Shown here piece after piece: positions 25,701-52,669 of a stretch of DNA of 64,000 nt. Position 1 is the stretch's first letter. Each line of letters begins with the position of its first letter. Origin of the DNA: Candidatus Omnitrophota bacterium (GTDB taxonomy: Bacteria > Omnitrophota > Gorgyraeia > Zapsychrales > JANLHA01); NCBI GenBank assembly GCA_963662715.1, contig OY759724.1, positions 730,662 through 794,661 on the forward strand, read 5' to 3'. A program made the position numbers and the translations under genes. Under the pieces are notes generated by a model. It searched no databases. It was not told the origin of the DNA and worked only from the letters and a program-made list of their open reading frames with translations.

Positions 25701-28091
25701 TTCTTCTCTTGTCAACCGCACTTGACTTTGCCTGCCAAGAGAAGACGGTTCTGCAACTTTGGCAATAATGTTCAACTCAGGTATCTTTAGATCTTGTTCG
25801 GGCAAAATATTAACAGGAAGCATTTCTAAAGCGGGTTTATTTTGTTGGCTCTGATGATAATCGTCCAGGAGTTCCCGCGTCACTATCAAATAAAAATTCT
25901 GGTATTTATCCACCGCAATGGCCTGCACCGGATAACGTTTAAACCCGTCCGGACCTTGTGTATAAAAATAATCCTTAATCCCTTCTGCGGCATAATCTGT
26001 GGTTAAATCAGTAAAAGAAAAGATTATTTTTCGATCACTTAAATTAATCTCCGTAGCAGCTACCAGCTTTTTGTTCGTATCACGCACGCCTACTGTAAAC
26101 ATCAACTCCTTCATACCTAATTGCGACGTCTGCCAATGTATTGAAAGATATTTATTATTAAATTCGATTAATCCATACTGCCCCTGCGGGTCCTGCACGA
26201 CATTCACCCCTTGTTGTTTTTCCAATGCTTGGGCGAGCTGGGTGTAAAGATTCTTGACCTTCCCCTCTGCCGAAATCGCCGAGGAAGCATTGTCAGGTGG
26301 GATAGGAGTAGATATCGATATAACCGAAATTCTTTCCGGGATAACGACTTTTTCTTCATCCATTTTTTGTAGCATTAACGATCCGGTAACATATCCATCA
26401 GTATGATCCTCTCCTTCTCCGACAATTACATATCCAGGAGGGATAGAAGATCGGTCCACGGTTTCACCATTGCTAATGGCGGCAGATCCATAACTTATTC
26501 TTTCCCCGGGAATATATTGTATTTCTTCTTTTTCAGGAATATACTCAACTTTAAAATCATTCCCTCCTTTTCTGATCTTCCAGGCCTCATGAAGATGCCT
26601 TAAAACTTCGTCATCAGCTTTTAATTTTGTCGATTTTCCTTCCAGCACTTGTTGAACTCTTCCCCTCAAATCCTCCTCAACTTGAAAAAGATTTATGACG
26701 ATAGGATCATCTTTAGCTGTTAATTTCAAGTTAGATAATGCTGTGTTAACTCTTTGAATATTCGAACTCCCAAGCTTGAATAAATTCCAGCTAATATATA
26801 ACCGCTTTAATATCGGGGAAGAACTCCCTTCTGTTGGGGATAAATCATCCAACCCTTTATCTGCATTCTCAACCAGCTCGATGCTCACCCGTCTGTCCTT
26901 ACCCTTCGTCGACTCAGGCTGCGTGATCGCCGAACTCACGCGTCCCGGCAGCCGGCCCGGCTGGCCGCGCAAGACCTCCAGTTTGTCCACCGTCACAACG
27001 CCTACGCCCAACCCCCCGGAAAAATATTTCCGCGGTATCACCTGCTGCGTCGCTTCATCGTAATCTTCCCGTATATAGTTGTAGACGCCTTGCTTGAACG
27101 CGTCCAGATACTGCTGGTATATCTTCTCCTTTATCTCTTTGTCTTCAACATCGATCCCCTTCACCTTGTTCCGGTCCATGTACACCTGGCCCAATAAACT
27201 GTCCCGCAAATTCTTCTTGTACCAGGTCGCCAGGATCATTGAGTTGTAGATCTGCCGCAAGTTCGCGAACGTCTGCCCTTCATTCACTTCCTTCTCTATC
27301 GCCGGAAGGATAATATCCTTGACGATCTTTGAGGACAGTTCATTCAGCTCCTTGGCCTGCCCTTCTGACTGTTTGTGCAACCCCAGGTCTTTGCTCTGCA
27401 GATTGTGCTCTAACGCCAGATAATCCTCTTCCAGCATCACCTTCAAGTGCCGTTCCACCACAAACGCGCTGCCCTCATGCTCATAGACAACCGCCTTATC
27501 CGGCACGATCCATACCTTATTAAATGTGTTTACCGGGATGTTTGTCGTGCCGTACAGCTCATAGGCCTTTTTATAGACTTTATTCCAGAACGCCTGGCCC
27601 AGGTCCTCTTCCGGATACATCAACGAAGCGGTGAGCTGTTTCAGCAGGTAATCCTGGGAGAGCATGTCCTTGCCCATTTCCGTAACGCCCAACCCTTCGG
27701 GGATGATCCGGTTGTTTTCATATGGCGATAAGTTGACCCACAGTTCATCTTCGGGGACCGTCAAAGCCGCCAGGAAATACTTGATCAGCCTCTGCGACTC
27801 GGCTTCAAAAGAGGCTCCTTTTAAATCCTTGTCTCCCGTATCAATAATGAAATCAAACTGCAGAGGGTTGTCCGGATGGATGGTGAGCCCCCGCAGGATC
27901 GCCGGGGCAAATGTCTCGCTGATCTTAAGGATCCTCCCCGGCTGCGGCAGGGAGAAGACAGCAGCCCGCTCTTCTTTGGCCCACCCCGGTGTCGGTATAA
28001 GGACAGACGACAATAAAAAGACCGCGGCCATGCCGGCCGATAAAAGGCGGCGGAATATAATATTCGACTTTGTTATAAATAACTCAAACAT
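19779..28091 (-). CDS. giant secreted HEAT-repeat protein, paralog 2 (2770 aa)
   Basis: Same N-terminal domain and C-terminal domain as paralogs; many HEAT-like repeats; two internal duplicated Gly-rich hydrophobic segments; stop only 37 nt upstream of paralog 1 start (operon). Confidence 0.85.
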   Translation of the reverse strand: MFELFITKSNIIFRRLLSAGMAAVFLLSSVLIPTPGWAKEERAAVFSLPQPGRILKISETFAPAILRGLTIHPDNPLQFDFIIDTGDKDLKGASFEAESQRLIKYFLAALTVPEDELWVNLSPYENNRIIPEGLGVTEMGKDMLSQDYLLKQLTASLMYPEEDLGQAFWNKVYKKAYELYGTTNIPVNTFNKVWIVPDKAVVYEHEGSAFVVERHLKVMLEEDYLALEHNLQSKDLGLHKQSEGQAKELNELSSKIVKDIILPAIEKEVNEGQTFANLRQIYNSMILATWYKKNLRDSLLGQVYMDRNKVKGIDVEDKEIKEKIYQQYLDAFKQGVYNYIREDYDEATQQVIPRKYFSGGLGVGVVTVDKLEVLRGQPGRLPGRVSSAITQPESTKGKDRRVSIELVENADKGLDDLSPTEGSSSPILKRLYISWNLFKLGSSNIQRVNTALSNLKLTAKDDPIVINLFQVEEDLRGRVQQVLEGKSTKLKADDEVLRHLHEAWKIRKGGNDFKVEYIPEKEEIQYIPGERISYGSAAISNGETVDRSSIPPGYVIVGEGEDHTDGYVTGSLMLQKMDEEKVVIPERISVISISTPIPPDNASSAISAEGKVKNLYTQLAQALEKQQGVNVVQDPQGQYGLIEFNNKYLSIHWQTSQLGMKELMFTVGVRDTNKKLVAATEINLSDRKIIFSFTDLTTDYAAEGIKDYFYTQGPDGFKRYPVQAIAVDKYQNFYLIVTRELLDDYHQSQQNKPALEMLPVNILPEQDLKIPELNIIAKVAEPSSLGRQSQVRLTREETRRLEQARRDFYQALGARVKEKLEESGISETYRIATSTSDMNTYLKTVQDLIGKFVESSQFWIEFAEVRELIDRKTSFSTFGEPVSLDEFDMRKIRYIVNLIGYELFFSLFDQVAKEHGIILNLRLMNEQLLPEWAGRRGDIFVPRSLNRQMKRIKEAVERDNPFYRDLKGNVYPVEKMTAADIQRVSSGITSINLSGFIPGTIAGALKNGFTSIAKGQQVDLSFVSPLLEEGQKYVSSPVTGAEFINAYSIGAAIAAGGLGTVWGLWRHTTKRGAFYGLDGSYSWTRYKAKRKLLEQYDLSDEEKAEVYRRILLRVTKKGLDLTDNYSEIMDAIKGMGIYQSKQAILPLISLLYDFRFRLDRDHRGAAVKESILESLTSLAGDFTLYHIRSLLDHPDRDIHVFALNLIAHLNMRAAIPLLQPLLIKAKNDAGMRVLLNYILARLGQQGHVPALLEWLQGVHEASAGRIPEQVFKGMDVLKEYDQENYKSLLTAWLGDDVDQAMRIFAVGRMFELQAENRQPLFDKFGKDRAIGEGEQSAEIVVIREAADEMLQSLGCSTREDYGRIIRTLNRMPGAFKDIEEVQPAPEGERLRRVKSLDKKDLYRLLSEPAVVAQITDTVIRKRRLGSLESLLRSTNAVDRDAAIQITAGLNRKTAVPLLESRLNEAVTPENRVLFMLALERFGVQGDLQTYIQWARNLRSPTPGQMRVLEAELLDIIRMRDEESFAGILVEWVDQPYPGAGYNLKRHAVRRLAEYLRETADDRYMRLGEDILAREKDGEDLYIIRADVLSFLQSLGLNTRAGLADYLRILKQHEEGAFGLSRLDEYLEDLNIKAIKVINLERALTLFSRPGFSRDLLNAGVDKGRFVTALITALQGSKDHAESIARGLAELADVKALDALYDVMFEATSLGVIDAFIHISNIYGLTDARTLAVNRTYASLNAILPKNKVAAFFIEGLEIVLSGDNFMVNYRPEKTEHKHHEAVTETIHHEGYLDEYEDYDDVSYVSGYTMPRKTRWVEAWDQVKVIEPARDELVSVIPERIELVQTGTSDSPVSSPVVTADSELQSSPITLAGVLNGGLLSVANGQTVDLSFTRPLTEAGLINEYTIGGAIALTAAWKIYKFWRLHTMRGNVHLLRIDSNDYYNKLSKERMIGYGAKIIPHLIRVLKNPKTTHAYKAEEILVVLREDIRDDQIKEIAKELPLVSAVKILTGMIINSDRKEPILSVLLNTAGIDDVLYKILANHQVPDSVRLSILDFIADSHKGNAAEPLLNLLSEENKVILNAVEGVLEKLGVTKEKLVKAYIMAAQKGKGIARLRAVRTLGDLLGDSADLDNKGAIEVLTGLLYEDDEPLIKAVESSLNKLGVALSDLIDTYISILEKGKGKSAKLNAVKVLENLRVKKAVPVLLKMFSEADIDLLEAVDQALKTLEVSEAELAGAYLRASQYSEGFYEAPLSSRIWTMQALGKVEDRETLRSLFEIKDFLRNKETFVALEEILRTGGVTEDEIVEFIDTHHRRYPDMRLEIISDILWGRGYRGASAVKLYKRAMEALLDRIAREPEELVFPILWDPNEGAGPENQTWGRDTEVIGEHRIPNATRQGYEEEYAEWTKRLNENVSSAIHQKDKAEVINITDSFDTASSPVAILPEYQASWDIFEQKWQEALRTPVQKDQRMMEEELKHLLHFNMPEAIMAKAQEALKARLPQSIIDKIAWDVPSLPYASVTYFTTDPRQKEQVTEETVAVLDQLIPGRVGAFKFMAQGIGMFQGKAIFIPMLMTDNARDEVKGLQDQFFDMTQKGPKFDPFVAHATFGWIVEDLTGDEPEILLKAIEDIRYEHWGDVDVDSVVLSERWFYQDRARDYRQEIKRYELGKEPEPASSPLGGIDFNPAALDLQIKRDGQGVPLPLPQQPVGDMRIDGFLPVIINIAPVNIPLLLGLTEEGPEESPPSATRRSALPSDSREKFYAGREKDISWLN
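26911..28047. repeat. direct repeat copy B covering 5' coding region of giant paralog 2
   Basis: See copy A. Confidence 0.85.
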
Positions 28092-31629: not shown

Positions 31630-31767
31630 GCGGACTGAACGATAAAGGCAAAACCGGTGTAAACCGGTGGCGCAAAGCTATAGGGTCCTTCAAAAGGATA
31701 GCCTGGCTGCCGAAGAAGTCAAAGAAAACAGGCTTATTCCTTATTGAGGGGATGAGCCTGTTTTTTT
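31630..31767 (+). promoter_or_regulatory. c-di-GMP-I (GEMM) riboswitch candidate with intrinsic-terminator expression platform
   Basis: AAAGGCAAAACC then palindromic hairpin ACCGGU-GUAA-ACCGGU (GNRA loop) then GGCGCAAAGC then second hairpin (GGGTCCTT.AAGGATAGCC) and closing TGCC pairing with GGCA; followed by 10-bp stem ACAGGCTTAT/ATGAGCCTGT + TTTTTTT at 31727..31767. Confidence 0.55.
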
Positions 31768-31852
31768 GGCCAAACGAGGTCAAAGGCCAAAACAGGAATA
31801 CAAAAGCTCTGTGACCACTTTTCAGCCGGGTCTGCCTAGAAAGGAGACACTT

Positions 31853-32086
31853 ATGCAACGAATGAGATGGGCGGCTCTAATCCTCTTGATGGTGATTTCT
31901 CCGTCTTTGGGACAAGCGGAAATGCTGGCAAAAACCTCCGTGCTTAACAAACCACAGAAACAAGAACAGGTCGTTAAGAAAAAAGGCGCGATGATCAAAA
32001 TCGGAAGTGTGCCTTACAGTAAAGACGGAGTGCTGAGAAAAGGAGCTGCGCTTAAAATAGGCTCCTATCCTTTGACCGAAAGTTAA
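31853..32086 (+). CDS. small secreted protein with two KGAxIKIGSxP repeats (riboswitch-controlled)
   Basis: AGGAGA RBS 7 nt before ATG 31853; signal peptide MQRMRWAALILLMVISPSLGQA; 77 aa; followed by terminator. Confidence 0.55.
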   Translation: MQRMRWAALILLMVISPSLGQAEMLAKTSVLNKPQKQEQVVKKKGAMIKIGSVPYSKDGVLRKGAALKIGSYPLTES

Positions 32087-41056: not shown

Positions 41057-42055
41057 CTACGGCATATCCACACCGTCTAAAATTCTGTCCACCAGATTCT
41101 CGGCCGTTATGTTCAGCCCGCGGGCCTGGTAACTTTCGATTAACCGATGGCTCAGAACATCCCGGGCCACAGCTCTGATGTCCTGCGGCCGCACATAAGC
41201 CCGGCCCTGAACCAAGGCGTAGGCCCGGCTGGCCACGGAAAGATGTATGCCGGCCCTCGGTGAAACACCGTATTTAATAAGCCCGACTAAATCATTCATC
41301 CCGAACTTATCCGGCTGGCGGGTTGCTTCAACAATATCCAAGATATAATCCTGCACCTTTTTTTCGATATGTATGCGGTCTACAAGGGTTCTGAGCCGCA
41401 GGATATGTTCAGGGTCCAGGACGGGATTGACGTCGAATTTGACATCGGTAAAAGCCATGCGCTGCAGGATCAACGCTTCTTCCTCCCGTGTCGGATAAGT
41501 CATCGACACCTTCAACATAAACCGGTCCAATTGAGATTCGGGCAAGGGATAAGTCCCGTCCTGCTCTATCATGTTCTGGGTGGCGAGGACTAAAAACGGC
41601 TCTGTTAATGCATAAGAGGCATCCCCGATCGTGACCTGCCGCTCCTGCATGGCTTCCAGCAGCGCGCTCTGGACTTTGGCCGGGGCACGGTTAATTTCAT
41701 CCGCTAAAACAATGTTGGCGAACACGGGCCCTTTTTTAACATAAAAAGACGCCGTACGCTGGTCGTACACCGGGGCCCCGGTTAAATCCGCCGGGAGCAT
41801 GTCAGGGGTAAACTGAATACGGCTGAACTGCAGCTGCACGGCCATGGCGAACGTTTTTACGGCCAGGGTTTTCGCCAGGCCGGGCACGCCTTCGATGAGG
41901 ATATGCCCTCCGGCGAGCATCCCCAGAAGAATACGCTCAATCAGGTCCTTCTGCCCGACAATAACATTTTCTATCTGCTGAAAGAATTCTCCGAATTTCC
42001 GAGACTCGTGCTGGATTTCTTTTTCTAACTCTTTCATCGTAGATTCTTTCATCAT
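41057..42055 (-). CDS. MoxR-family AAA+ ATPase
   Basis: 332 aa; Walker A GVPGLAKT, Walker B/MoxR signature LADEINRAPAKVQSALLEAMQE. Confidence 0.9.
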   Translation of the reverse strand: MMKESTMKELEKEIQHESRKFGEFFQQIENVIVGQKDLIERILLGMLAGGHILIEGVPGLAKTLAVKTFAMAVQLQFSRIQFTPDMLPADLTGAPVYDQRTASFYVKKGPVFANIVLADEINRAPAKVQSALLEAMQERQVTIGDASYALTEPFLVLATQNMIEQDGTYPLPESQLDRFMLKVSMTYPTREEEALILQRMAFTDVKFDVNPVLDPEHILRLRTLVDRIHIEKKVQDYILDIVEATRQPDKFGMNDLVGLIKYGVSPRAGIHLSVASRAYALVQGRAYVRPQDIRAVARDVLSHRLIESYQARGLNITAENLVDRILDGVDMP

Positions 42056-42079
42056 ATATCCCCTCTCCTGTTTTCTTCC

Positions 42080-45000
42080 TTACCAGTAAAAAATCCGGTT
42101 TTCATCTCCGGCCAGCGTTTCAACCAGATTTTTTTCACTCATCTTAGCACCGACCATAAAAATATTCATCTTTTTTTCACGAAGAGGACTCATCCGGATC
42201 TCCTGCTCCGTTCTCTGCATAAAGTCCGTCAACGCGACCTGCTGTAAGAAAACATCATTTTCTTCAGACGTATAAAAATCCAATCCGGAGATATCCAGCG
42301 TCATATGCCCGGCGATGCTTTGTTCATATCTTTCTTTGATCTTCGTCAAAATTTTCTCGGAAAAAGACAAACAGTCTCTATCGGCAGAAAGACGTACGGG
42401 ATATTCATGCAACGTTCCCGTGGGGTCAATCAAAATCAGTCTCTCTAACACCGTTTCGGAACGGAACAGATGGAACATTTTGACCGAACGGGCAAAGTCC
42501 CTGGCCCAAAGCCTTCGGCCCTCTTCATAATGCAAACCCCTCATATCCAGCCACAGGGCGACGCGGGCCCCGTAAGGATTGCTGAAGCGTCTGACCATGG
42601 GAACGGATGTGGCATAGCGCGCCGTGGCCTTCCAATCAATGTGCCGGATATCGTCTCCCGACATATACTGCTCAAGCCGGTCAAACTCCACGCTCGTTTC
42701 ATTGTTTTCCGGGATTTTGTCTCTCAGAAAATTAAAATTCATATGGGTCACCCGGGATTCCTGGAGGAGAAAGTCAAAAACCAGGGGTTTGACCCTGTCC
42801 AGGACATTGTCTCCTCGCGCCTTGGGGGCATTCTTCTGCGGCGGGGTATAAGTGTAAAAGATCTTTTTAAAACGGCTGTATAAAGACGGACAGGACGCTG
42901 TTTCCCGGATTTGAGTCAGCATAGACGCGATACTGTCATTATATTCTTCCCGCAGATGAAAATATTTCTGCACCGGCCATATCCATAAAGCACGGCCCAG
43001 GTAAGGCCCCAAGAACGGCAGAAAAAACAACAGGTCATGCGCCTTGTTAACGACAGCTGATTTCTGCGGATTCAAGGGCGCCAGGAAAAGACAAACATCA
43101 AAAATAAACCGTTCTTTATCGCTGGCGGTTGATTTAAACGCGCAAATATCCTTTTTAAGCTGAGGGTCTATCTGCCCTTTGGCAAGATAAACGCGTTTCA
43201 AAAGTTTCCTTTCCCGCTGTTCGGCTCCGAAGCTGTAGCCTTTGGCCCAGGGATTGTTGTTATAAATGCGGTCGATAATACTGGCCGGATCCCGGCCGTA
43301 AAACCTGCGTTTTCTATACGGAGCTCCCAGGGTATGAATAAAGAATGCCGATAAGTTGAAAAAGATGAAGACAAAAACAGCTGCCGCGATGGATTCCGCG
43401 CTGGTAGCCTGGGGCAGGTGTTCGGAACGATAAAAAATCAAGCTGAGGGCATTGCGCAAAAATGACCACAAATGAAAGCCCCCTCCAACGCTGTCGGCTG
43501 TCCCGTCAAAAATAAAACGGGGTCCGCTTCTGGGGCCGACCAAACCCACGCCGCCCAGGATATAACCCCGCTGTGCGATTCTGTGATCCGTTCCGTAAAT
43601 GACTTCCTGAAAATTTGACATGACGGACATGTACCGGCCCGGCTCGGCCGTGGACAAATATTTCTCCGGTTCGCGATAAAGAAGATACGCCACTTCATGA
43701 AGAACATCATTGTCCATTTTTTGGATGTCGGCGGCGATACGCCGGATGCGGTCTTTTTCAAAACGGTTGGAGATCAAAGGAGCTTTCCGGCCGGGGTTCT
43801 GCTCTGACAAATAAATGGACAGCCCGTTAAGAATCCCCTTGGAAGCTTGAGAATAATGGTCGAATTCATCCCCTTTTAAGGTTTCGGCCACCAGTCTCTG
43901 AGAGATGTACTCCTTCCGGTCACCGGCCCATAAAACCGGGGCCAGCATAGAATTCAATTCAATATTTTCGGGTAACGGCTTATTTTCAAAACGAAAACGC
44001 AGGTGATCAACGACGTGTCCCGTTTCATGAAAGGCCGTCCATTCCACGTGAGAAGTCATCCGGCGGAAAACAATGGCAAATTCACCTTCAAAGTATCCTG
44101 CCCGGTCAAGAAAAGGATACTCCTCTCCTTCCACGACATAAGAAACAGCCGGCCACAACTCTGATCTTTTAACCTTCTCCCTATCCATTCCCAGACGCTG
44201 AAACGCCTCTTCAGCAAAAACGTACCGTTTTAAGATCGGTTCCGAGAACAAAAAAAGATAAGGAACGTCCTCTTCCAAAATAATAAAGGTAAAAGGAAAA
44301 ACATTATAAGAGATAAATGCTCTTCTCAGATCCAGAAGTTCATTTCTTAAAGCCCCTTCCTGTATGGTCTGCTGCCCGAACAGCGTGATGATATTGCCGA
44401 TAGAACGCGCGATACGTCCGTCAAGATAATAAGCCGCTTCCACGACATCGTTCTTCAGCTGGGCATCCAGGTTCCAGTCTGCCATCAGCAGAAAAAAACC
44501 TTTGAGGATATGCCGGCAGAAAAAGAGGAACCCTTCCCGGGAACGGTAAAGCCTTTTAGCGTAAAAAACGCGAAGATTATGTCTTATCTGCTCCGGAGAA
44601 TAAGTTTCCCCGATAGCTGCGACCCGGGTTTTGAAGTATCCTTCTTTTTCTTTATCGGCGAGGGATTCGGCATCAAATTTGAAAATCTTTTTTAGCTCAA
44701 AAACAAAAACCCGCCATAACCGGTTATCCGCATCCGTCCGCTCCAGGGCGGCCAAACAGAGTCCGGACAACACAAAAGCCAGAACCAAAGCCGCCGTTAA
44801 ATTTCGAAATCTTTTCCGCTGGCCGGCCCGGACAAACCGGACAAAAGGATCGACGGTACGCCGGTACATATCCTTAAGCTGGTCGGAAAAAGGATAATAC
44901 CCGTGCAGCCAGTCTTCCAGTCGGATAAGCCAGGCGCTTTTCCCGGAGCCTTCCTCCCTGAAATCTTCGGGAACGGCGGCCGTTAAAGTTTTCTGAGCTT

Positions 45001-45655
45001 CTATGAAAAGCCCGGTCATGGCTTCCTGGGCCATAGTGATCTGAAAACGGTTACGCAGGTTATAATGACTTTCCGTGAGGATAAAACGCAAATACCGGTA
45101 AATATGACCGCATAACTTATGATAAACAACCCGCCAGGGGCTGGTGTTGGCCGGGATGCGGTCCAATTGCCGTTTAAGAAGATATATTTCGCGTTCCCGT
45201 GCCTCGGGCCACAGGCCTTTTTTAGCTTTATCTTCCAGGTCCTTCCAAAGATCGCTGGCCTCTTTTTCAACACGGTGACGTTCTTTATCGTGCCGTTTTC
45301 CCGGCTGTTTCCCGGGCAGATTTTCTTCGGCGGGCCAGCGCAGATCGGCATAAAACGCGATCCATCGCCTGGTTTTAAAATAAATAGCATCAATCTGTGA
45401 CAAATATTTCAGAAAAAACGGCTGTAATTGCGGCTTGTCCGCCGGGGTATGTTTCTGTAACGACAGAATATATGCCCTCAGGCGGTGATGGGATAATTCC
45501 ACCTGCCGGTCGATAGATAAAATACTTAATGTATCTGCTTTGGGATGGCGGATGCTTTTTCGATAGGCATCTTCTAATCTGCGGATATGCTTAAGAGGCT
45601 CTTCGCTCAAATTCTCGGAGAGAGCGAAAAATTTTTTAATAAAAGAAAAAGTCAT
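42080..45655 (-). CDS. large membrane protein with HExxH metallopeptidase-like motif and C-terminal DUF58 domain (MoxR partner)
   Basis: 1191 aa; FHETGHVVDHL motif; TM segments; C-terminal DDIRHIDWKATARYATSVPMVRRF typical DUF58; 24 nt upstream of MoxR gene. Confidence 0.7.
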   Translation of the reverse strand: MTFSFIKKFFALSENLSEEPLKHIRRLEDAYRKSIRHPKADTLSILSIDRQVELSHHRLRAYILSLQKHTPADKPQLQPFFLKYLSQIDAIYFKTRRWIAFYADLRWPAEENLPGKQPGKRHDKERHRVEKEASDLWKDLEDKAKKGLWPEAREREIYLLKRQLDRIPANTSPWRVVYHKLCGHIYRYLRFILTESHYNLRNRFQITMAQEAMTGLFIEAQKTLTAAVPEDFREEGSGKSAWLIRLEDWLHGYYPFSDQLKDMYRRTVDPFVRFVRAGQRKRFRNLTAALVLAFVLSGLCLAALERTDADNRLWRVFVFELKKIFKFDAESLADKEKEGYFKTRVAAIGETYSPEQIRHNLRVFYAKRLYRSREGFLFFCRHILKGFFLLMADWNLDAQLKNDVVEAAYYLDGRIARSIGNIITLFGQQTIQEGALRNELLDLRRAFISYNVFPFTFIILEEDVPYLFLFSEPILKRYVFAEEAFQRLGMDREKVKRSELWPAVSYVVEGEEYPFLDRAGYFEGEFAIVFRRMTSHVEWTAFHETGHVVDHLRFRFENKPLPENIELNSMLAPVLWAGDRKEYISQRLVAETLKGDEFDHYSQASKGILNGLSIYLSEQNPGRKAPLISNRFEKDRIRRIAADIQKMDNDVLHEVAYLLYREPEKYLSTAEPGRYMSVMSNFQEVIYGTDHRIAQRGYILGGVGLVGPRSGPRFIFDGTADSVGGGFHLWSFLRNALSLIFYRSEHLPQATSAESIAAAVFVFIFFNLSAFFIHTLGAPYRKRRFYGRDPASIIDRIYNNNPWAKGYSFGAEQRERKLLKRVYLAKGQIDPQLKKDICAFKSTASDKERFIFDVCLFLAPLNPQKSAVVNKAHDLLFFLPFLGPYLGRALWIWPVQKYFHLREEYNDSIASMLTQIRETASCPSLYSRFKKIFYTYTPPQKNAPKARGDNVLDRVKPLVFDFLLQESRVTHMNFNFLRDKIPENNETSVEFDRLEQYMSGDDIRHIDWKATARYATSVPMVRRFSNPYGARVALWLDMRGLHYEEGRRLWARDFARSVKMFHLFRSETVLERLILIDPTGTLHEYPVRLSADRDCLSFSEKILTKIKERYEQSIAGHMTLDISGLDFYTSEENDVFLQQVALTDFMQRTEQEIRMSPLREKKMNIFMVGAKMSEKNLVETLAGDENRIFYW

Positions 45656-46197: not shown

Positions 46198-46422
46198 TTA
46201 AATAATACTCCCGAAGGGGTTCCGGGGGCCGAGATTAACGGCTCGCAGAAACGAAGGAAGTTTTCTGGCGGGGATAATAATTTCCGTGACCTTTTCTCTT
46301 GTCACGTCTTCAAAAATCATCTTTAAACCAACCTGGCCTTCATCATCACTGAAATGTTTGGCATAAAGGCTGTAATTCGCTCCGCAATCGCTCCATTCAA
46401 TGAGTTCATTAATTCTGGCCAT
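46198..46422 (-). CDS. small hypothetical protein (74 aa)
   Basis: GGAG RBS 8 nt upstream of ATG; no known domain. Confidence 0.3.
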   Translation of the reverse strand: MARINELIEWSDCGANYSLYAKHFSDDEGQVGLKMIFEDVTREKVTEIIIPARKLPSFLRAVNLGPRNPFGSII

Positions 46423-46559
46423 ATGATCGCTCCAATGTTTTATGGTTGAGTTGGCTTTGGAAGGAATTATATTATTCCGCCATTTTCATGTCAAGCGCAG
46501 ATGATATAGATATCCACCGGCTCACGCCAGCGACTTTTACACACCCATAAAAACTGAAA

Positions 46560-46595
46560 AAAGAGAGCCTCAAAAGGGGCCCTCTTTTTTTCAAT
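46560..46595. terminator. bidirectional intrinsic terminator downstream of giant paralog 3
   Basis: AAAAAAGAGAGCC-TCAAAAGG-GGCCCTCTTTTTTT. Confidence 0.5.
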
Positions 46596-46649: not shown

Positions 46650-49600
46650 TCAGAAAACATCCTGCTTGGCGCCGGCGTCTAACGATGACAGCTGATCTTC
46701 ATCGCCGGGCTCAACGTCCGAATCCGAACCGAATAACAGCGGGAGGTTGGGAACAGGGGTGATATTAATAATAACAGGTAAAAATCCTCCGATATCCATC
46801 TGCTGAACAGGCTGCTGCGGCAGAGGCAAAGGAACGCCTTCCCCGTCACGCTTGATCTGCAGATCCAACAGTTGAGGATTAAGATTGATACCTCCATACT
46901 GCCCGTTATCAACAACCTCTTCCGTTATCGCCGATTGAAACAGGGGTGACGATGCAACCGCTTGCTGAATGATCTCCTGGCTAGGCAGATAAAGATCTCT
47001 GCCGTCGGACAATTCCGGCCTTCTCAGCTTCTCGACATTACCGTCAGCAGCGAACAAATTTTTCATAACTTCATTCCATTTGGCTATATCCTGCTCAGAC
47101 ATGTCACGGACCGGCTCCAGCAGACGATCAACTTCAGCCAGCAATCCCTTTTCCCGGCTTAATTCCAGGAAAACCTCTTGGAGAGCTTCTTCCGGATTAG
47201 CCGAATGCACCGCATCTTCAAAAATGGTTTCCGTGCCCCAGGCCTGGTAAAGAGCCGTCTCAATATCCCCCTCGACTAAATTATCATAAATAGTTTTTAA
47301 AGGTTCCAGACCTTCTCTCCCGAGTAAATCTTCAAGATGATGGATCAGGTCCCCCCGTCTGTTATAAGCCGTGCCGTTGTTGGAGTGATGCGCAATCACT
47401 CTGCGCAGCTGCTCGCCGCTCAGCTTAAGCCGTTCATAGGTCGCAAGGAAATCCGCAACAGAGGGCTCACTGCTCGCGATATTCTGAACGCCCTTCTCAT
47501 TAATATACTGCCAGAAAAAAGGATCTCTGTCTTCCACGGGTTGATCCAACGCCGTCAATACGGCTTCCTTATGCTCCAGCAAGTCGTTTATCAACCGGGC
47601 CCGCTGGGTCTTCATCTTAAGAGCAAGCTGTAACAACTGCAATTGGGCCCTGGACTGACTCTTTTCCACATCAACTTTAGGGGAGGTCCGCAGGGCATTA
47701 TACAGAAGCTGTTTACTCTCTGTATTGAACCTGTTGCCCAATCTTGCCAGTCCGACCAAAAGATTGCCGGCCGACGGGCGCCGGCCTCCGCCTTCCTGCT
47801 GGCTTTTCCGGCCGCTATACTTAATCAGATAACCGTTTCTTATTTCGTATTCCCCGTATTTCAGCCCGCGCAACAATTCATTATGAGTGAGGCCGGTTTT
47901 AATGACATCGACTCTCTGCCCGGTGCGCACGTCAATCACATCAAACAGTTCCGGCATCGTCCCGCCCCAGACCCCGAACATAAAAGCGCCGTTGGTAAGG
48001 GCCTTCATCATACTTGTCGCAGACGCTTCCAGAAACTCGTCCGACAACATAATCGTCGCCGCCACCCCGCGGAAAATCAGCGGAGCGTCATAAGGGTTGT
48101 AATTTTCAAGAAAGGCAATTTGATCCCCGAGGCCCAGATCCTTGACCATGCCTTTCAACTCTTCGAACAGCTGATTGGCTTCGTGCCCAAAGATTCTTCC
48201 GCCCAGAGCCAGCCGCATCTTGGAATCCCGGAACTGTTTAAGCGCTCTGGGGTCCTTTAAAATCCCGAGGATCTCTTTATAAATGTCCGGCCCTTTATAA
48301 GGCACCTGCCGGCGAAGGTTCGCCGCAACAGGGTTCTGAATTAAAACATCCTTCAATTTCCCGAGTTTCTCATCCAAGGCTCTCCATTGTCCCTCATTCT
48401 TAACATCCGCTAAAGCCTGATTAAGCAGGCCCGCATATTCTTCCCGTAAAGCCCTGACGTCCGTCTGGCTGTCCAGCCCCGATTCCTTGAGGAGCTGGGC
48501 AAGCCACTGGGATCCACCCAAATCCTGCGTCTGGTTCTCCTGTAACCAGAGATAAAGGTCCATCATATACAGCACCTTAATCTGCTCAAACTGGCTCTGA
48601 AAACGGGCCAGCTCAGCGGGGTTTTCTTCCAGTTTGTCATAAAACTGCACGTCGTCTGTTTGAGCGGTTAAACCCAACGATACTTTGTAATCATCAATGA
48701 TGCTTCTCAGTTCATGGCCCTGCCACTGGTCAAAAAGGACCCCGTTGCTGTTACGCTGCTCTCCCTGATACCATTGCCAAATTTTATGCGCAAGATCAGG
48801 AAGCAGATTGTTTCTCAAGACCGGAGTATGTTCATACACACTGACCCCCATAAAAAGATCGACATTTTCCGCGGCATACCTCACGATATCGATAACATCC
48901 CGGCCGCCTTCCTTAAAGACAATGGCCTGCCGGTCTTTCTCCTCAAAACCCATTAACTTAAAGGCATATTCCGGAGGGTTGTACATCGCCGGCTTATAAA
49001 CACTGTGGTTGATCTCGGCCCTCATGGCTGTTTCCGTGACAGGCGGCTGCTCAATCCCAAGCTCGGCGAGATCCATTTGTTCGTTTTTCGGCAAGCTGAC
49101 GAAAATTTCATTTTCCACCCAGGTGACTTTACTTTTTATTCTCCCGTCCGCCTGTAACATCCTGGCGAACCGCTGGGTCGCCTTGTTGTACACAACCATC
49201 TGAATGACCCGCCAGTCCTTGGCCGGGGAAATCTCATCAGAATATATCTCGTCAAAAATATACTGTTTGTTCCCGTCATCATCAAGATAATAGGCGTCTT
49301 CATAAAACTCCGGAAGCGTCGTGAAGGAAGACTCCAGTTCATAAAGATCAACGGTGATCGGGCGCCCCTGCGCCTGCGCCAGCAATTCCTTCATTTTGGC
49401 GAATTTTTCATCATCCAATTCAGAAAAAGCTTCCCGGGCCTCATCTTCTAATCCTTTAAGCACATACTGGCTCTGATCGAGATACCCCATCTGGATCAGA
49501 CGCGAGGAAAGGGCTTCGGCCAGTCCGCCATCTACGCCAAGCTGTTCCAGTTCCTGCTTGGAAACAGCTCGGCCGACCAGCTGTTTCGCCTTGTCAAAAA

Positions 49601-51500
49601 CGGCTTTGTTTCTGAAATCCGTATCATTCAACCGTAACGTAACACTCTTCTGCGCCGGCGGCAACACGTCCCTGATTAACTGCCCCAGAGCGACACTCCC
49701 GTCTGCGATATAGTTTTTGAAAATCTCTTCCGGGACTTCTCTAACTGTTCCTTTTATACGGTTGTTCAACGTATTAAAAGAAACAACATCAACGCCCGCC
49801 CTCTTCCAGGCGACAACGAGATCATGCATCAACGCGCCCAAACCTCCGCTCATATTGACCTGAGAAATGAAACGGGTCAGTTCTTCCCCATATTTGGCTG
49901 CCAGCGTGTCGACCAGAAATCCGCGGTCCAGGGAGGCCTCCATCTGCAAACTGATAACCGTGCGGTCCATAAGATCGGGAACATTTTGGGCCGCCCAGGA
50001 ATTTTCATCAACACCCTGCAGGTCAGCCTCCGTCGTCTCCCCCATCCGGACCGGCGCCGCTTTCTTGCCGTTTAACACGTCAACGGCCTCGGCCATAAAA
50101 TCCAATATCTGCAAAGCGCTCAAAAGTTTCCGCTGATCTATTCTTGATAAACTTGTCCGCACCGATGTCTCCGGCAGTTGCAGCGGAGATGAGACCGCTC
50201 CCTGTCCGTCTATCGACAAGCGGACAACATCATCCATCGCATCAGCCGCGGCCTTATTTCCGACTTCGGTGAGATTCACCTGGATATTAATAGGAGAACT
50301 CCCTGAAGCTGTTCCGGCCCCGCGCTCCTGATAACGGGCCGGCAGGTTTCCGCGAAGGTCTTCCCTTATATGTTTCACCGCCGTAAGCTGCATCCCTCCG
50401 GAAAAATACTTCCGGGGAATCGGCTGGGTCTCCTCCGGGTGGTTCTCTTCGCGGATATAATTGAACACGCCTTTTTCAAAAGCCATGAGATATTGTTGAT
50501 AAATTTTCTCGCTGATCCGCTTGTCCTCGACATCAATGCCTTTTGTTCTGGTCTTATTGACATAAACCTTCCCCAGCAGGGATTGCCGCAGATTGTCTTT
50601 ATACCAGGAGGCTAAAATGACCGAGTTATATATCTGCCGAAGGTTGGAAAACGTCTTGCTTTCATTCACTTCCTTTTCAAGTTCCGGGATGAGGATCTCC
50701 CGGACAATATCAGAAACATCCCCGCTGATTTCTTTGGCTTCATGGTCAGAGACATGATCAAGCCCGAATTTTTTAGTGCCCCGGGTTTTCTGTAAAGCAA
50801 GATAATCCTGTTCAAGCATAACCTTTAAATGGCTGTCGACCACATAAGCTCCGCCGGCTTTCTCGTAAACGACAGCTTTATCCGGAACAATCCAGATTTT
50901 ATTAAAAGTATTGACCGGGATATTGATCGTCCCGAAACGCCGGTAAGCTTTCTCATAAGCCCTTTGCCAGAATTCCTGCCCCAGTTTTTCTTCCGGATAA
51001 ATTAACGAAGCAGAAATTTGTTTCAGCAAATAGTCTAAAGCTAAAAGATCCCGTCCCATTTCCGTCTTCCCGAAGGCCTTCGGGATAATACGGTCTTTTT
51101 CATAAGGGGAAAGGTTGACCCACATGTCTTCTTCCGGAATTGTGAGAGCAGCCAGAAAATACTTAATTAAGTCCGTGGCTTGACGCCGGAATTCCTTCCC
51201 GTCAGGGTCCTCGTCTCCGGGATCAACAATAAAATCCAGACGTAAGGGCTGGTCAGGATAAATCCGGACGCCCTGGATAATCATCGGGTTAAAAGTGCCG
51301 CTGAGACGGAGCATCTTCCCGGGAGGCGGCAGGTCCGGCACGGCCATGGTCTCGTTCAGGGCATAGGCCGCAGATACCGGAGAGAACCACGCAACAGGAC
51401 TCGGGATAATTAGACTGGACGAAATAACTAATATAAGGAATACATTGGAAACTTTACAGAAGACACGTTTGGATTGACGGGATAAAGTCTGGCGTTTCAA
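46650..51500 (-). CDS. giant secreted HEAT-repeat protein, paralog 3 (1616 aa; TTG start)
   Basis: GGAGGA RBS then TTG at 51498-51500; signal peptide; N-domain homologous (WVNLSPYE..RIIP..TEMG..IPVNTFNKIWIVPDKAVVYE) to paralogs 1/2; C-terminal GGINLNPQLLDLQIKRDGEGVPLPLPQQPV...GFLPVIINITPV domain. Confidence 0.85.
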   Translation of the reverse strand: MKRQTLSRQSKRVFCKVSNVFLILVISSSLIIPSPVAWFSPVSAAYALNETMAVPDLPPPGKMLRLSGTFNPMIIQGVRIYPDQPLRLDFIVDPGDEDPDGKEFRRQATDLIKYFLAALTIPEEDMWVNLSPYEKDRIIPKAFGKTEMGRDLLALDYLLKQISASLIYPEEKLGQEFWQRAYEKAYRRFGTINIPVNTFNKIWIVPDKAVVYEKAGGAYVVDSHLKVMLEQDYLALQKTRGTKKFGLDHVSDHEAKEISGDVSDIVREILIPELEKEVNESKTFSNLRQIYNSVILASWYKDNLRQSLLGKVYVNKTRTKGIDVEDKRISEKIYQQYLMAFEKGVFNYIREENHPEETQPIPRKYFSGGMQLTAVKHIREDLRGNLPARYQERGAGTASGSSPINIQVNLTEVGNKAAADAMDDVVRLSIDGQGAVSSPLQLPETSVRTSLSRIDQRKLLSALQILDFMAEAVDVLNGKKAAPVRMGETTEADLQGVDENSWAAQNVPDLMDRTVISLQMEASLDRGFLVDTLAAKYGEELTRFISQVNMSGGLGALMHDLVVAWKRAGVDVVSFNTLNNRIKGTVREVPEEIFKNYIADGSVALGQLIRDVLPPAQKSVTLRLNDTDFRNKAVFDKAKQLVGRAVSKQELEQLGVDGGLAEALSSRLIQMGYLDQSQYVLKGLEDEAREAFSELDDEKFAKMKELLAQAQGRPITVDLYELESSFTTLPEFYEDAYYLDDDGNKQYIFDEIYSDEISPAKDWRVIQMVVYNKATQRFARMLQADGRIKSKVTWVENEIFVSLPKNEQMDLAELGIEQPPVTETAMRAEINHSVYKPAMYNPPEYAFKLMGFEEKDRQAIVFKEGGRDVIDIVRYAAENVDLFMGVSVYEHTPVLRNNLLPDLAHKIWQWYQGEQRNSNGVLFDQWQGHELRSIIDDYKVSLGLTAQTDDVQFYDKLEENPAELARFQSQFEQIKVLYMMDLYLWLQENQTQDLGGSQWLAQLLKESGLDSQTDVRALREEYAGLLNQALADVKNEGQWRALDEKLGKLKDVLIQNPVAANLRRQVPYKGPDIYKEILGILKDPRALKQFRDSKMRLALGGRIFGHEANQLFEELKGMVKDLGLGDQIAFLENYNPYDAPLIFRGVAATIMLSDEFLEASATSMMKALTNGAFMFGVWGGTMPELFDVIDVRTGQRVDVIKTGLTHNELLRGLKYGEYEIRNGYLIKYSGRKSQQEGGGRRPSAGNLLVGLARLGNRFNTESKQLLYNALRTSPKVDVEKSQSRAQLQLLQLALKMKTQRARLINDLLEHKEAVLTALDQPVEDRDPFFWQYINEKGVQNIASSEPSVADFLATYERLKLSGEQLRRVIAHHSNNGTAYNRRGDLIHHLEDLLGREGLEPLKTIYDNLVEGDIETALYQAWGTETIFEDAVHSANPEEALQEVFLELSREKGLLAEVDRLLEPVRDMSEQDIAKWNEVMKNLFAADGNVEKLRRPELSDGRDLYLPSQEIIQQAVASSPLFQSAITEEVVDNGQYGGINLNPQLLDLQIKRDGEGVPLPLPQQPVQQMDIGGFLPVIINITPVPNLPLLFGSDSDVEPGDEDQLSSLDAGAKQDVF

Positions 51501-51608: not shown

Positions 51609-51650
51609 TTATAATAAGTATATACTAAGTTATTTCTATTGACAAGTCAA
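51609..51650 (-). promoter_or_regulatory. candidate sigma70 promoter for giant paralog 3 (-35 TTGACT, 17-nt spacer, -10 TAGTAT, on minus strand)
   Basis: Reverse complement reads TTGACTtgtcaatagaaataactTAGTATATACT about 110 nt upstream of TTG start. Confidence 0.4.
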
Positions 51651-51847: not shown

Positions 51848-52669
51848 TTATTCAAACTTTTTTCTCCTTCTTAACACAGCCCCCCCAAGTAAACTGCCGC
51901 CTAATAAAAACAGCGTTGCCGGTTCCGGGACATGATTGCCATAAGCTTTAAGATTTAACTCGTCATTCCCGCATTTCATGGTCCAGTGAATCCAAGCGAC
52001 GGAATCCTCTGAATCATATAAATCCATATCTAAAAGCGCCAAAGGGATCCGGGCTTCCATGACATAATGGGAATTCTGTTCTCCGCTGTAGACAAAATCA
52101 GCCCCTAAATCAGTAACAGCGACATTATCGCCGGTTACATCCCCGGAGGCATCCCTTGCAATCCGCCAGGGATCAGCACTGGAATGCTGACTGTATTGCA
52201 CGTTATCCCAGCTGGAAACAGAGTATAATGTCGAGGAAGTCACATCAATGGCATAGCTCTGCGCGCCGGGAGCATAAGATAAAAACGGATTGTCTATTGA
52301 CCCGATTTCGATAAAAATATCTCCTGCCGGATACGATGTCCCAGTTGCCGGTAATCCGGTAATAACCGCGATATAGAGATAATCGGCATCATTATCAAAA
52401 TAAATCGCTTCGGCATCATAAGTGTTCCCTGTCGTGTAGCCGGGACCCACATAGGTGTTGTTGGGAGAATTCACATCGGCATTGTCTTCTGTTAAGACAT
52501 CAATATTATAACCCCCCGTTGGCAGGTGCGTATCCAAGTAACCCTGATTTGTGGCCTGGGAAAGATCAATACCCCAATCATCAACATTGCCGTCAATGAC
52601 ATAAAAGGCTTGTGCTAAAGATACCGGGAAAAGCAGGAAAAGAAATAAAAAAATTGTAATTTTTTTCAT
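51848..52669 (-). CDS. PEP-CTERM sorting domain protein (exosortase substrate)
   Basis: 273 aa; signal peptide; C-terminal VPEPATLFLLGGSLLGGAVLRRRKK = PEP motif + TM + Arg-rich tail; Asp/Tyr/Thr/Ser-rich body. Confidence 0.8.
   Translation of the reverse strand: MKKITIFLFLFLLFPVSLAQAFYVIDGNVDDWGIDLSQATNQGYLDTHLPTGGYNIDVLTEDNADVNSPNNTYVGPGYTTGNTYDAEAIYFDNDADYLYIAVITGLPATGTSYPAGDIFIEIGSIDNPFLSYAPGAQSYAIDVTSSTLYSVSSWDNVQYSQHSSADPWRIARDASGDVTGDNVAVTDLGADFVYSGEQNSHYVMEARIPLALLDMDLYDSEDSVAWIHWTMKCGNDELNLKAYGNHVPEPATLFLLGGSLLGGAVLRRRKKFE

Follow-up and report, generated by a model that had tools for sequence, protein, structure and literature searches.

A predicted GT35-like phosphorylase between two conserved terminal modules in a probably exported protein family of Omnitrophota

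In a 64,000-nucleotide stretch of contig OY759724.1 from a Candidatus Omnitrophota bacterium (assembly GCA_963662715.1, positions 730,662 to 794,661; hereafter the window), the minus-strand open reading frame (ORF) 46650..51500 is a genuine gene, paralogous to a tandem gene pair located in the same window. This target gene encodes a protein of 1616 residues belonging to a family that has thousands of members and is seen almost only in metagenome-assembled genomes (MAGs) of Omnitrophota. The family architecture comprises a cleavable Sec-type signal peptide, an N-terminal domain (N-domain), one exchangeable cargo block, a short C-terminal module (C-module) and an acidic tail. The N-domain and the C-module are under purifying selection, and the variation within the family consists of the exchange of unrelated enzyme cargo between these two bookends, not of diversifying substitution. 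In the target, the cargo is predicted to be a complete, very divergent and probably pyridoxal phosphate (PLP)-dependent alpha-glucan phosphorylase, and the protein is probably exported. The parts of the protein are located as follows, P0123 being the family member whose ends are closest to those of the target, PDB the source of structure-linked sequences and AF2 the AlphaFold2 models.

51360..51500, minus strand: Sec-type signal peptide, residues 1-47, with a basic n-region, a hydropathy scan value of 2.08 and a cleavage-type site A-Y-A before L
50394..51338, minus strand: N-domain core, residues 55-369, from LPxPG to PRKYFSGG; 58% identity to both paralogs and 43 invariant columns
50181..50300, minus strand: junction region, residues 401-440, with SSPI (401-404), the predicted strand NIQVNL, ADAM (421) and SSPL (437-440), from motif reading and the AF2 strand at 404-409
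47241..50018, minus strand: cargo, residues about 495-1420, divergent GT35-like alpha-glucan phosphorylase predicted from homologs and PDB profile matches
49836..49847, minus strand: GGLG motif, residues 552-555, within SGGLGALMHDL, invariant in homolog alignments
49365..49565, minus strand: insertion of 67 residues (646-712) absent from the three homologs, columns 270-340 of the homolog alignment
48003..48029, minus strand: EASATSMMK, residues 1158-1166, counterpart of the PLP-lysine motif EASGTSNMK, aligned to the glycogen/glucan phosphorylases 2c4m and 4bqe (HMMER)
46941..46952, minus strand: junction motif SSPL (1517-1520) inside QQAVASSPLFQ, with the C-module 15 residues further on, from motif reading
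46728..46895, minus strand: C-module, residues 1536-1591, GGINLNPQLLDLQIKRDGEGVPLPLPQQPVQQMDIGGFLPVIINITPVPNLPLLFG, 77% and 53% identity to the paralogs
46653..46727, minus strand: acidic tail, residues 1592-1616, SDSDVEPGDEDQLSSLDAGAKQDVF, resembling the P0123 tail RLSSLDASKKQDVF

The tandem pair consists of the minus-strand genes 15080-19741 (1553 residues) and 19779-28091 (2770 residues). An earlier sequence-only reading of the window had described the target as a third paralog whose N-domain and C-terminal module (DLQIKRDG...PVIINITPV) are conserved at the protein level on diverged DNA, with a centre that differs from the other two and is not obviously made of HEAT repeats only, and pairwise comparisons bear this description out. 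By BLASTP, the target N-domain is 58% identical to both tandem paralogs over 351 residues (E-values 2e-127 and 4e-126), and the C-module identities extend over 92 residues (53%) and 56 residues (77%). Taken over the modules as a whole, amino-acid identity to the tandem pair is 58-62% for the N-domain and 69-78% for the C-module. At the nucleotide level, identity in the N-domain falls to 63%, and to about 39% at third positions. Between the two modules no significant BLASTP similarity of the target to the tandem paralogs was found and its centre is unrelated to their HEAT-repeat centres; no HEAT or HEAT_2 Pfam repeat was detected in the target at E-values up to 0.1, while both paralogs match HEAT_2 at about 1e-10. 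The similarity also extends well beyond low-complexity or signal-peptide sequence, to which a spurious relationship had been expected beforehand to be confined, as 43 columns of the N-domain are invariant across 63 family members. Each module occurs in exactly three copies in the 64-kb window (tblastn). The family itself is not a small one of three, the target being one of thousands of members.

The same reading had called for the ratio of nonsynonymous to synonymous substitution (omega, dN/dS) across the N-domain. Such a ratio was obtained for the tandem pair, whose N-domains are 94% identical (dN 0.030, dS 0.18, omega 0.17) and whose C-modules are 75% identical (dS 1.19, omega 0.18); for the target against the pair, on the other hand, synonymous sites are saturated and only a dN of about 0.30 can be given. 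Since dS is 0.18 in the N-domains and 1.19 in the C-modules, gene conversion or a recent partial duplication has made the 5' ends of the tandem genes alike at a much later date than their 3' ends. The description of the family as diversifying, in the sense of fast-evolving surface variants, is not supported because the shared modules are under purifying selection, the C-module remaining 60-75% identical across top matches from many MAGs, and because the cargo is swapped wholesale. Separately, the 2770-residue paralog contains two internal copies of an element of about 80 residues (residues ~990-1070 and ~1865-1930; pattern ..GQ.VDLSF..PL.E.G...IN.Y[ST]IG.AIA....W..W), each with SSP[VI] before it and a moderately hydrophobic, possibly membrane-spanning stretch at its end.

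The target N-terminus reads KRQTLSRQSKR, then VSNVFLILVISSSLII, then SAAYA with the presumed cleavage before L, and this is the only hydrophobic segment detected by the hydropathy scan, which found no internal transmembrane helix. Across 112 complete family N-termini, scored by simple rules, the n-region is net-positive in 111, a strong h-region is present in 107 and an AXA-like site in 108. A typical family N-terminus runs ...PP..YAQ and reaches LNLPxPG within a few residues, the corresponding block of the target being L57-P58-P59-P60-G61. The N-domain that follows, of about 330 residues, carries the invariant blocks W-V-N-L-S-P, K-x-W-I-x-P, E-x-N...R-Q and Y-F-S-G-G, all of which are shared by the target. 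Its AF2 model, built from the 63-sequence alignment, shows a mixed alpha/beta arrangement with three long hairpins (predicted local distance difference test, pLDDT, 74.5; predicted template modelling score, pTM, 0.71). No Pfam or NCBIfam match to the N-domain was obtained, even with the 63 members scanned at an E-value of 0.1, nor any PDB or BFVD match, and the predicted model is without a fold match.

The C-module has the consensus GGI[DN]LNP..LDLQIKRDG.G.PLP..Q....I.GF.P.II.I.P...P...G, and its core is always found 46-125 residues before the C-terminus; in the target, 25 residues separate the module from the end of the protein. The tail is acidic and variable, many members ending in ..S.LN and the target and P0123 in the variant LSSLDA..KQDVF. 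The NCBIfam library includes models for C-terminal sorting domains. Scanning of 25 modules at E-values up to 10 gave no match in it, and neither a Pfam match nor a meaningful PDB sequence match was found. In the AF2 model of the smallest member, P0069, the C-module has a pLDDT of 40-70 and shows no docking onto the N-domain. Being proline-rich, more conserved than the N-domain and modelled at low confidence, the C-module may be a peptide-like element that takes on structure once bound to a conserved partner. Homology between the two bookends was also considered, as residues 57-98 (51207-51332) and 1551-1603 (46692-46850) share the pattern LP.P...M....F.P..I.....P.N.PL, and was rejected as not significant (tblastn, 45% identity over 33 residues, E-value 0.94; hhalign, E-value 0.09, probability 0.6%).

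The borders between modules are marked by short motifs. In 238 family proteins, [AS]SSP[VIL] was observed between modules 190 times against 4.8 expected, an enrichment of about 40-fold, and SS[PA][ILVM] lies at most 60 residues upstream of the module core in 38 of 132 C-module matches. D-x-A-M-[L], an alternative that is likewise enriched, occupies the same positions in some members; in P0123, DQAM aligns at the position of the target SSPI (50289-50300), the first of the two SSP motifs of the target junction region, the second being SSPL at 50181-50192.

The extent of the family was assessed with each bookend. The N-domain search returned at least 1361 protein clusters, the top matches (E-values of about 1e-133) being 50-60% identical and nearly all named Candidatus Omnitrophota or Omnitrophica, and 2178 representative clusters carry the C-module according to an exhaustive phmmer search started from the final 123 residues. 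With one genome scanned per GTDB species, at least 537 family loci were confirmed; those listed all come from MAGs of Omnitrophota or from ones given the automatic label "uncultured Planctomycetales" or "bacterium", and the best 80 loci include up to 7 copies per MAG. Of the 58 C-module proteins with 1000 residues or more, 49 have the N-domain signature in their first 250 residues, and no internal or duplicate copy of either module was found in the family proteins, each occurring once, at its own end. Members with both ends range from 549 residues (P0069, which has little beyond the N-domain and the C-module) to 5312 residues (P0134, the longest seen). The target displays all three features defining the family, namely a signal peptide followed by LPxPG, a ~330-residue N-domain with the invariant blocks and a single C-terminal module. 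The bookends are thus two unannotated domain families of thousands of sequences each, without a Pfam or NCBIfam model, and no description of the conserved pair was found in the accessible parts of the literature on giant Omnitrophota proteins.

As for the cargo of the target, its central ~1100 residues were searched against 5.8 billion protein clusters, and only three clusters were retained as relatives among the candidates scored. P0122, from Elusimicrobiota, has a block of the same kind of ~950 residues (42-44% identity to the target) fused to a GH13 alpha-amylase domain that is absent from the target, and P0273 and P0274 are stand-alone proteins of 1032 residues with 38-41% identity to the target cargo. 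PF00343 is on record for all three, P0122 passing its cut-off (30.4 against 27 bits) and the match of P0274 being faint. A profile of the four sequences, built from a trimmed alignment excluding the GH13 domain of P0122, whose matches otherwise swamp the results, was compared with PDB sequences; the best 38 matches are glycogen or alpha-glucan phosphorylases, with E-values from 1.4e-4, followed by three weaker matches to GT-B starch synthases or glycosyltransferases.

Five motifs are invariant in the four homologs: SGGLGAL, YEHT.VL, R..NG.L.DQW, N.RRQV.YKGPD and EASATSMMK, the first four appearing in the target as SGGLGAL, YEHTPVL, RNSNGVLFDQW and NLRRQVPYKG. We take the target GGLG to be the counterpart of the NGGLGRLA motif of GT35 phosphorylases, and the series as a whole presumably corresponds to the GGLG loop, His377-Thr, TNG...W, the phosphate site Lys568/Arg569...Tyr573/Lys574 and the PLP-binding Lys680 of glycogen phosphorylase, the last of these matches being directly visible in the HMMER alignments. 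The HT and TNG motifs align to 2c4m, in a weak alignment. Besides the 67-residue insertion, the target cargo has extra helical regions. As a separate observation, P0273 and P0274 (locus L081 8001-11099) begin with a hydrophobic, signal-like N-terminus (MCRLTIKRSLITILITVLSHTG...). Because these stand-alone homologs begin in this way, the phosphorylase lineage may be extracytoplasmic outside the bookend family as well, and an exported GT35-like lineage may exist outside Omnitrophota.

The cargo of the relatives was surveyed by Pfam scans of 37 + 63 + 7 family members. The domains recovered are a response-regulator receiver, UDP-glucose pyrophosphorylase (UDPGP), sucrose synthase, phosphoglucomutase (PGM), GT1, phosphoglycerate kinase (PGK), pyruvate phosphate dikinase (PPDK), S-adenosylmethionine (SAM) methyltransferases, HAD hydrolase, PP2C and HEAT, and P0123 carries a starch-synthase-like domain. 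Many of the corresponding enzymes have alpha-glucan, a hexose phosphate or a glycolytic intermediate as substrate. There is overlap with the domain inventories of Omnitrophota giant proteins, as far as these are given in the accessible parts of two reports (10.1101/2023.11.21.568195; 10.64898/2026.06.07.730766).

The preferred reading of these results, which we hold to be evenly poised between right and wrong, is that of an exported enzyme whose bookends are shared handles, the C-module being a tag and the cargo a phosphorylase acting on alpha-glucan. The protein would cross the inner membrane through Sec with removal of its signal peptide, and conserved components of the envelope would recognise both bookends as common handles: the C-module would be a tag for docking or sorting that folds only on its partner, and the N-domain an anchor or assembly unit. 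Shared handles of this kind would therefore put many different enzymes in one extracytoplasmic location, which could be the periplasm, the cell surface or coat, or a contact zone with a host or prey. The target would there convert alpha-glucan (glycogen or maltodextrin) and phosphate into glucose-1-phosphate, and sister members carrying PGM, UDP-glucose pyrophosphorylase, sucrose- or starch-synthase-like domains, PGK or PPDK would use the same hexose-phosphate pool. In the available text of three reports, long and giant Omnitrophota proteins are described as mostly having a signal peptide or transmembrane segments, as containing similar enzyme domains and as lying near genes for type II secretion systems (T2SS) or pili (10.1101/2023.11.21.568195; 10.64898/2026.06.07.730766; PMC10066038).

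Several observations weigh against this reading. The cargo consists of classically cytoplasmic enzymes requiring PLP, adenosine triphosphate (ATP), uridine triphosphate (UTP), SAM or phosphorelay partners, so that extracytoplasmic activity is hard to rationalise. The target itself falls below the curated cut-offs, with 15.6 bits against 27 for PF00343 (E-value 0.005) and 26.4 bits against 191.7 for TIGR02094 (E-value 2.8e-6), and its catalytic competence is consequently judged from the motifs only. The signal-peptide calls were made with simple rules of our own and not with a trained predictor. The N-domain is absent from 9 of the 58 long C-module proteins, which are either truncated gene calls or real exceptions; truncation is likely for several, since they visibly begin inside the N-domain. 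Neither the 80 loci nor the window neighbours revealed a partner, a receptor or a secretion component: no gene is conserved in the 3 kb upstream of the 80 loci, the search for conserved neighbours yielding only antisense ORF artefacts within the gene itself, and the paralogs have as window neighbours unrelated housekeeping and radical-SAM genes, a MoxR/DUF58 pair and a PEP-CTERM protein, with no evident partner.

Because the cargo needs ATP, UTP, SAM or phosphorelay partners, three other readings stay alive, namely effector delivery, a coat and a cytoplasmic metabolon. In the first, the family would be an effector carrier resembling MARTX or polymorphic toxins, the ends forming or engaging a translocation device and the enzymes being delivered into the cytoplasm of a host or prey, perhaps after release at the junctions. 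It would account for cargo that makes sense only in a cytoplasm, where glycogen, ATP and UTP are found, and that nevertheless follows a signal peptide, for variable effector-like modules between conserved ends and for the short motifs enriched at the junctions. The available text of two reports likewise proposes Omnitrophota as predators or parasites and describes a giant protein up-regulated in attached cells of V. archaeovorus (PMC10066038; 10.1101/2023.11.21.568195). On the other hand, Pfam, NCBIfam and PADLOC scans detected no protease domain and no pore-forming or RTX repeats, no toxin-like cargo was seen among the members scanned, and host association is not indicated, the 3.36-Mb contig being large for an obligate epibiont. 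Release at the junctions also fits poorly with their sequence, as a protease would meet a proline, an unfavourable P1' residue, right after the Ser-Ser of SSP[VIL]. Overall, we consider effector carriage unlikely.

A self-assembling coat or scaffold, which we judge decidedly unlikely, would depend on head-to-tail binding in trans between the N-domain and the C-module, or on their binding to a lattice, and would yield an enzyme-decorated envelope layer of which the giant Archaeovorins would be covalent versions. The possession of both ends by members from P0069 to P0134 is compatible with such assembly; in addition, P0069 has little else, suggesting that the bookends are functional in themselves. 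The weak resemblance between the start of the N-domain and the C-module (LPxP...M...F.P..I...P.N.PL) points in the same direction, but it is not significant in either comparison given above, and the P0069 model shows no docking of the C-module in cis. In the accessible parts of one report, the V. archaeovorus giant protein is proposed to be coat-forming (PMC10066038).

A metabolon tethered to the inner membrane, in which the hydrophobic segment would stay uncleaved as an anchor, with the enzymes clustered at the membrane inside the cell by the shared modules, suits cargo of cytoplasmic types and has little chance of being right. By the positive-inside rule, the basic residues before the hydrophobic segment orient the N-terminus inwards and the rest of the protein outside, and the AXA-like cleavage site is found in all but four of the 112 members scored. 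The available text of the 2026 preprint first considers an intracellular multi-enzyme reading of the giant proteins and then rejects it on topology grounds (10.64898/2026.06.07.730766).

The sequence-only reading had likened the family to surface or secreted adhesins and giant-gene families of uncultivated bacteria, of which probable export and the link to long or giant proteins of uncultivated bacteria stand, whereas a diversifying adhesin-like surface family, with centres evolving fast for binding or antigenic variation, is most improbable and already largely refuted by domain content: although three paralogs with unrelated centres and export signals lie within 36 kb and adhesin roles are proposed for some giant Omnitrophota ORFs in the accessible parts of one report (PMC10066038), the centres are enzymes (a GT35-like phosphorylase in the target) or HEAT scaffolds without adhesin repeats or domains, they are non-homologous and not diverged versions of one sequence, conserved orthologs of the target centre occur in other lineages (38-44% identity), and the shared modules are under purifying selection.

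A wider proposal can be put forward as a tentative and rather doubtful one, namely that the family is an unrecognised, Omnitrophota-specific display or delivery system exporting ordinary cytoplasmic enzymes, a kit with [AS]SSP[VIL] junctions that would be iterated in the Archaeovorins, and that the C-module represents a new class of sorting or docking signal. If true, a near-complete glycogen-to-glycolysis set (phosphorylase, PGM, UDP-glucose pyrophosphorylase, PGK and PPDK) would act on or in a host or prey, or in an enlarged periplasm, and the 56-residue C-module would have a dedicated receptor.

The gene itself bears the following start and expression signals.

51498..51500, minus strand: TTG start codon, from the six-frame ORF list and the start of the homolog P0123
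51508..51514, minus strand: perfect Shine-Dalgarno sequence AAGGAGG, 7 nucleotides 5' of the TTG, from direct sequence reading
51617..51645, minus strand: promoter-like TTGTCA-17-TATACT, 10 of 12 consensus positions, a consensus match only
46557..46590, minus strand: terminator-like hairpin of 13 base pairs followed by a T-run, 60 nucleotides past the stop codon, a pattern match only

The TTG start of the 1616-residue ORF, as it had been read from the sequence, is very likely real because P0123 starts with MKRQTLS where the target starts with (M)KRQTLS. A promoter and a terminator of its own had likewise been ascribed to the gene and corresponding sites were found, the promoter-like one coming after a terminator-like hairpin of the upstream gene (~51810-51785); both are consensus matches and no evidence of function.

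In the surroundings of the target, the gene directly upstream (51848-52669, minus strand) encodes a 273-residue protein with a PEP-CTERM signal (PF07589, E-value 1.5e-6), which suggests that exosortase-type sorting is used by the organism. Immediately past the target terminator, a perfect sigma-70 consensus TTGACA-17-TATAAT (12 of 12 positions; 46466-46494, minus strand) precedes a 74-residue ORF (46198-46422, minus strand; MARINELIEWSDCGANYSLYAKHF...), after which comes a small GC hairpin (46226-46210). Further downstream, a gene for a MoxR-type AAA ATPase (AAA_3) adjoins one for a 1191-residue protein with a DUF58 segment (41057-45655, minus strand). Between the tandem pair and the target, on the opposite strand, lies a c-di-GMP-I riboswitch of the GGC variant (RF03167, 31638-31715, plus strand; 65 bits, gathering score 59), followed by a 106-residue ORF with a signal-like hydrophobic stretch (31766-32086, plus strand). 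The gene 7808-13663 (minus strand) encodes a bacterial alpha-2-macroglobulin of 1951 residues (MG2, bait-region, A2M, TED and bMG10), unrelated to the paralog family despite its size.

When compared with known systems, the family shares traits with several of them, the closest in function being cargo of the type IX secretion system, dockerin-bearing enzymes of cellulosomes and MARTX toxins. The target has no PF07589 or NCBIfam match to the PEP-CTERM/exosortase signature and its tail is acidic, the model being functional on proteins of this genome since it matches the upstream neighbour. Neither the target nor its paralogs gave a Pfam match to Ig-like, cadherin, beta-helix, dockerin or TSP3 repeats, and none of the three has a PADLOC match to anti-phage defence. 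Cargo proteins of the type IX secretion system (T9SS) similarly combine a Sec signal peptide with a conserved C-terminal module of fewer than 100 residues carried by many unrelated proteins per genome in one phylum, Bacteroidota; the bookend C-module, on the other hand, is shorter and rich in proline, has an acidic tail behind it and is not predicted to fold by itself, the T9SS cargo lack the obligatory 330-residue N-domain, and the NCBIfam and Pfam models of T9SS sorting domains gave no match to C-modules. The dockerin-bearing enzymes of cellulosomes are likewise diverse secreted enzymes docking to a common scaffold through one small terminal module, whereas the bookend family has neither dockerin (PF00404) nor calcium-binding repeats, no cohesin-like partner was identified and the cargo is only partly made of carbohydrate-active enzymes. 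MARTX toxins also place a variable array of enzyme effectors between conserved N- and C-terminal regions, while the target is much smaller, without RTX-type repeats or a cysteine protease domain, and its modules are unrelated to theirs in sequence.

With the GT35 phosphorylases (PF00343, TIGR02094) the target has in common GGLG, H-T, TNG....W, RR...YK and EAS.TS..K, the last including the PLP lysine. It differs from them by its extreme divergence and its fusion between export bookends, and the signal-like N-termini of the stand-alone relatives are unusual for this cytoplasmic class; attention is thereby drawn to an unusual lineage of PLP-type glucan phosphorylases that is apparently exported.

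Closest in kind are the giant proteins of Omnitrophota, a phylum of widespread, uncultivated and probably predatory or parasitic nanobacteria whose long and giant enzyme-laden proteins are a recognised puzzle, as nothing obvious explains the presence of such enzymes outside the cell. As far as the available text of the corresponding reports goes, these giants and Archaeovorins share with the target, besides the phylum, a predicted signal peptide or membrane association and N-terminal regions without an identifiable domain, and the Archaeovorins are tiled with glycosyltransferases, PGM, methyltransferases, HAD, PPDK_N and receiver domains and HEAT scaffolding (10.1101/2023.11.21.568195; 10.64898/2026.06.07.730766). 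The Archaeovorins exceed 30,000 residues, with genes of more than 90 kb, dozens of transmembrane helices and SecA-like domains, according to the same text, whereas the target gene of 4.85 kb encodes one cargo block and no SecA domain by Pfam. Taken together, the target is a small, single-cargo version, free of transmembrane helices, of the long and giant multi-enzyme proteins of Omnitrophota. A shared grammar of signal peptide, fixed head, swappable cargo and fixed 56-residue tail would make the puzzle of the giant proteins experimentally tractable, since single-cargo members such as the target are small enough for expression and assay.

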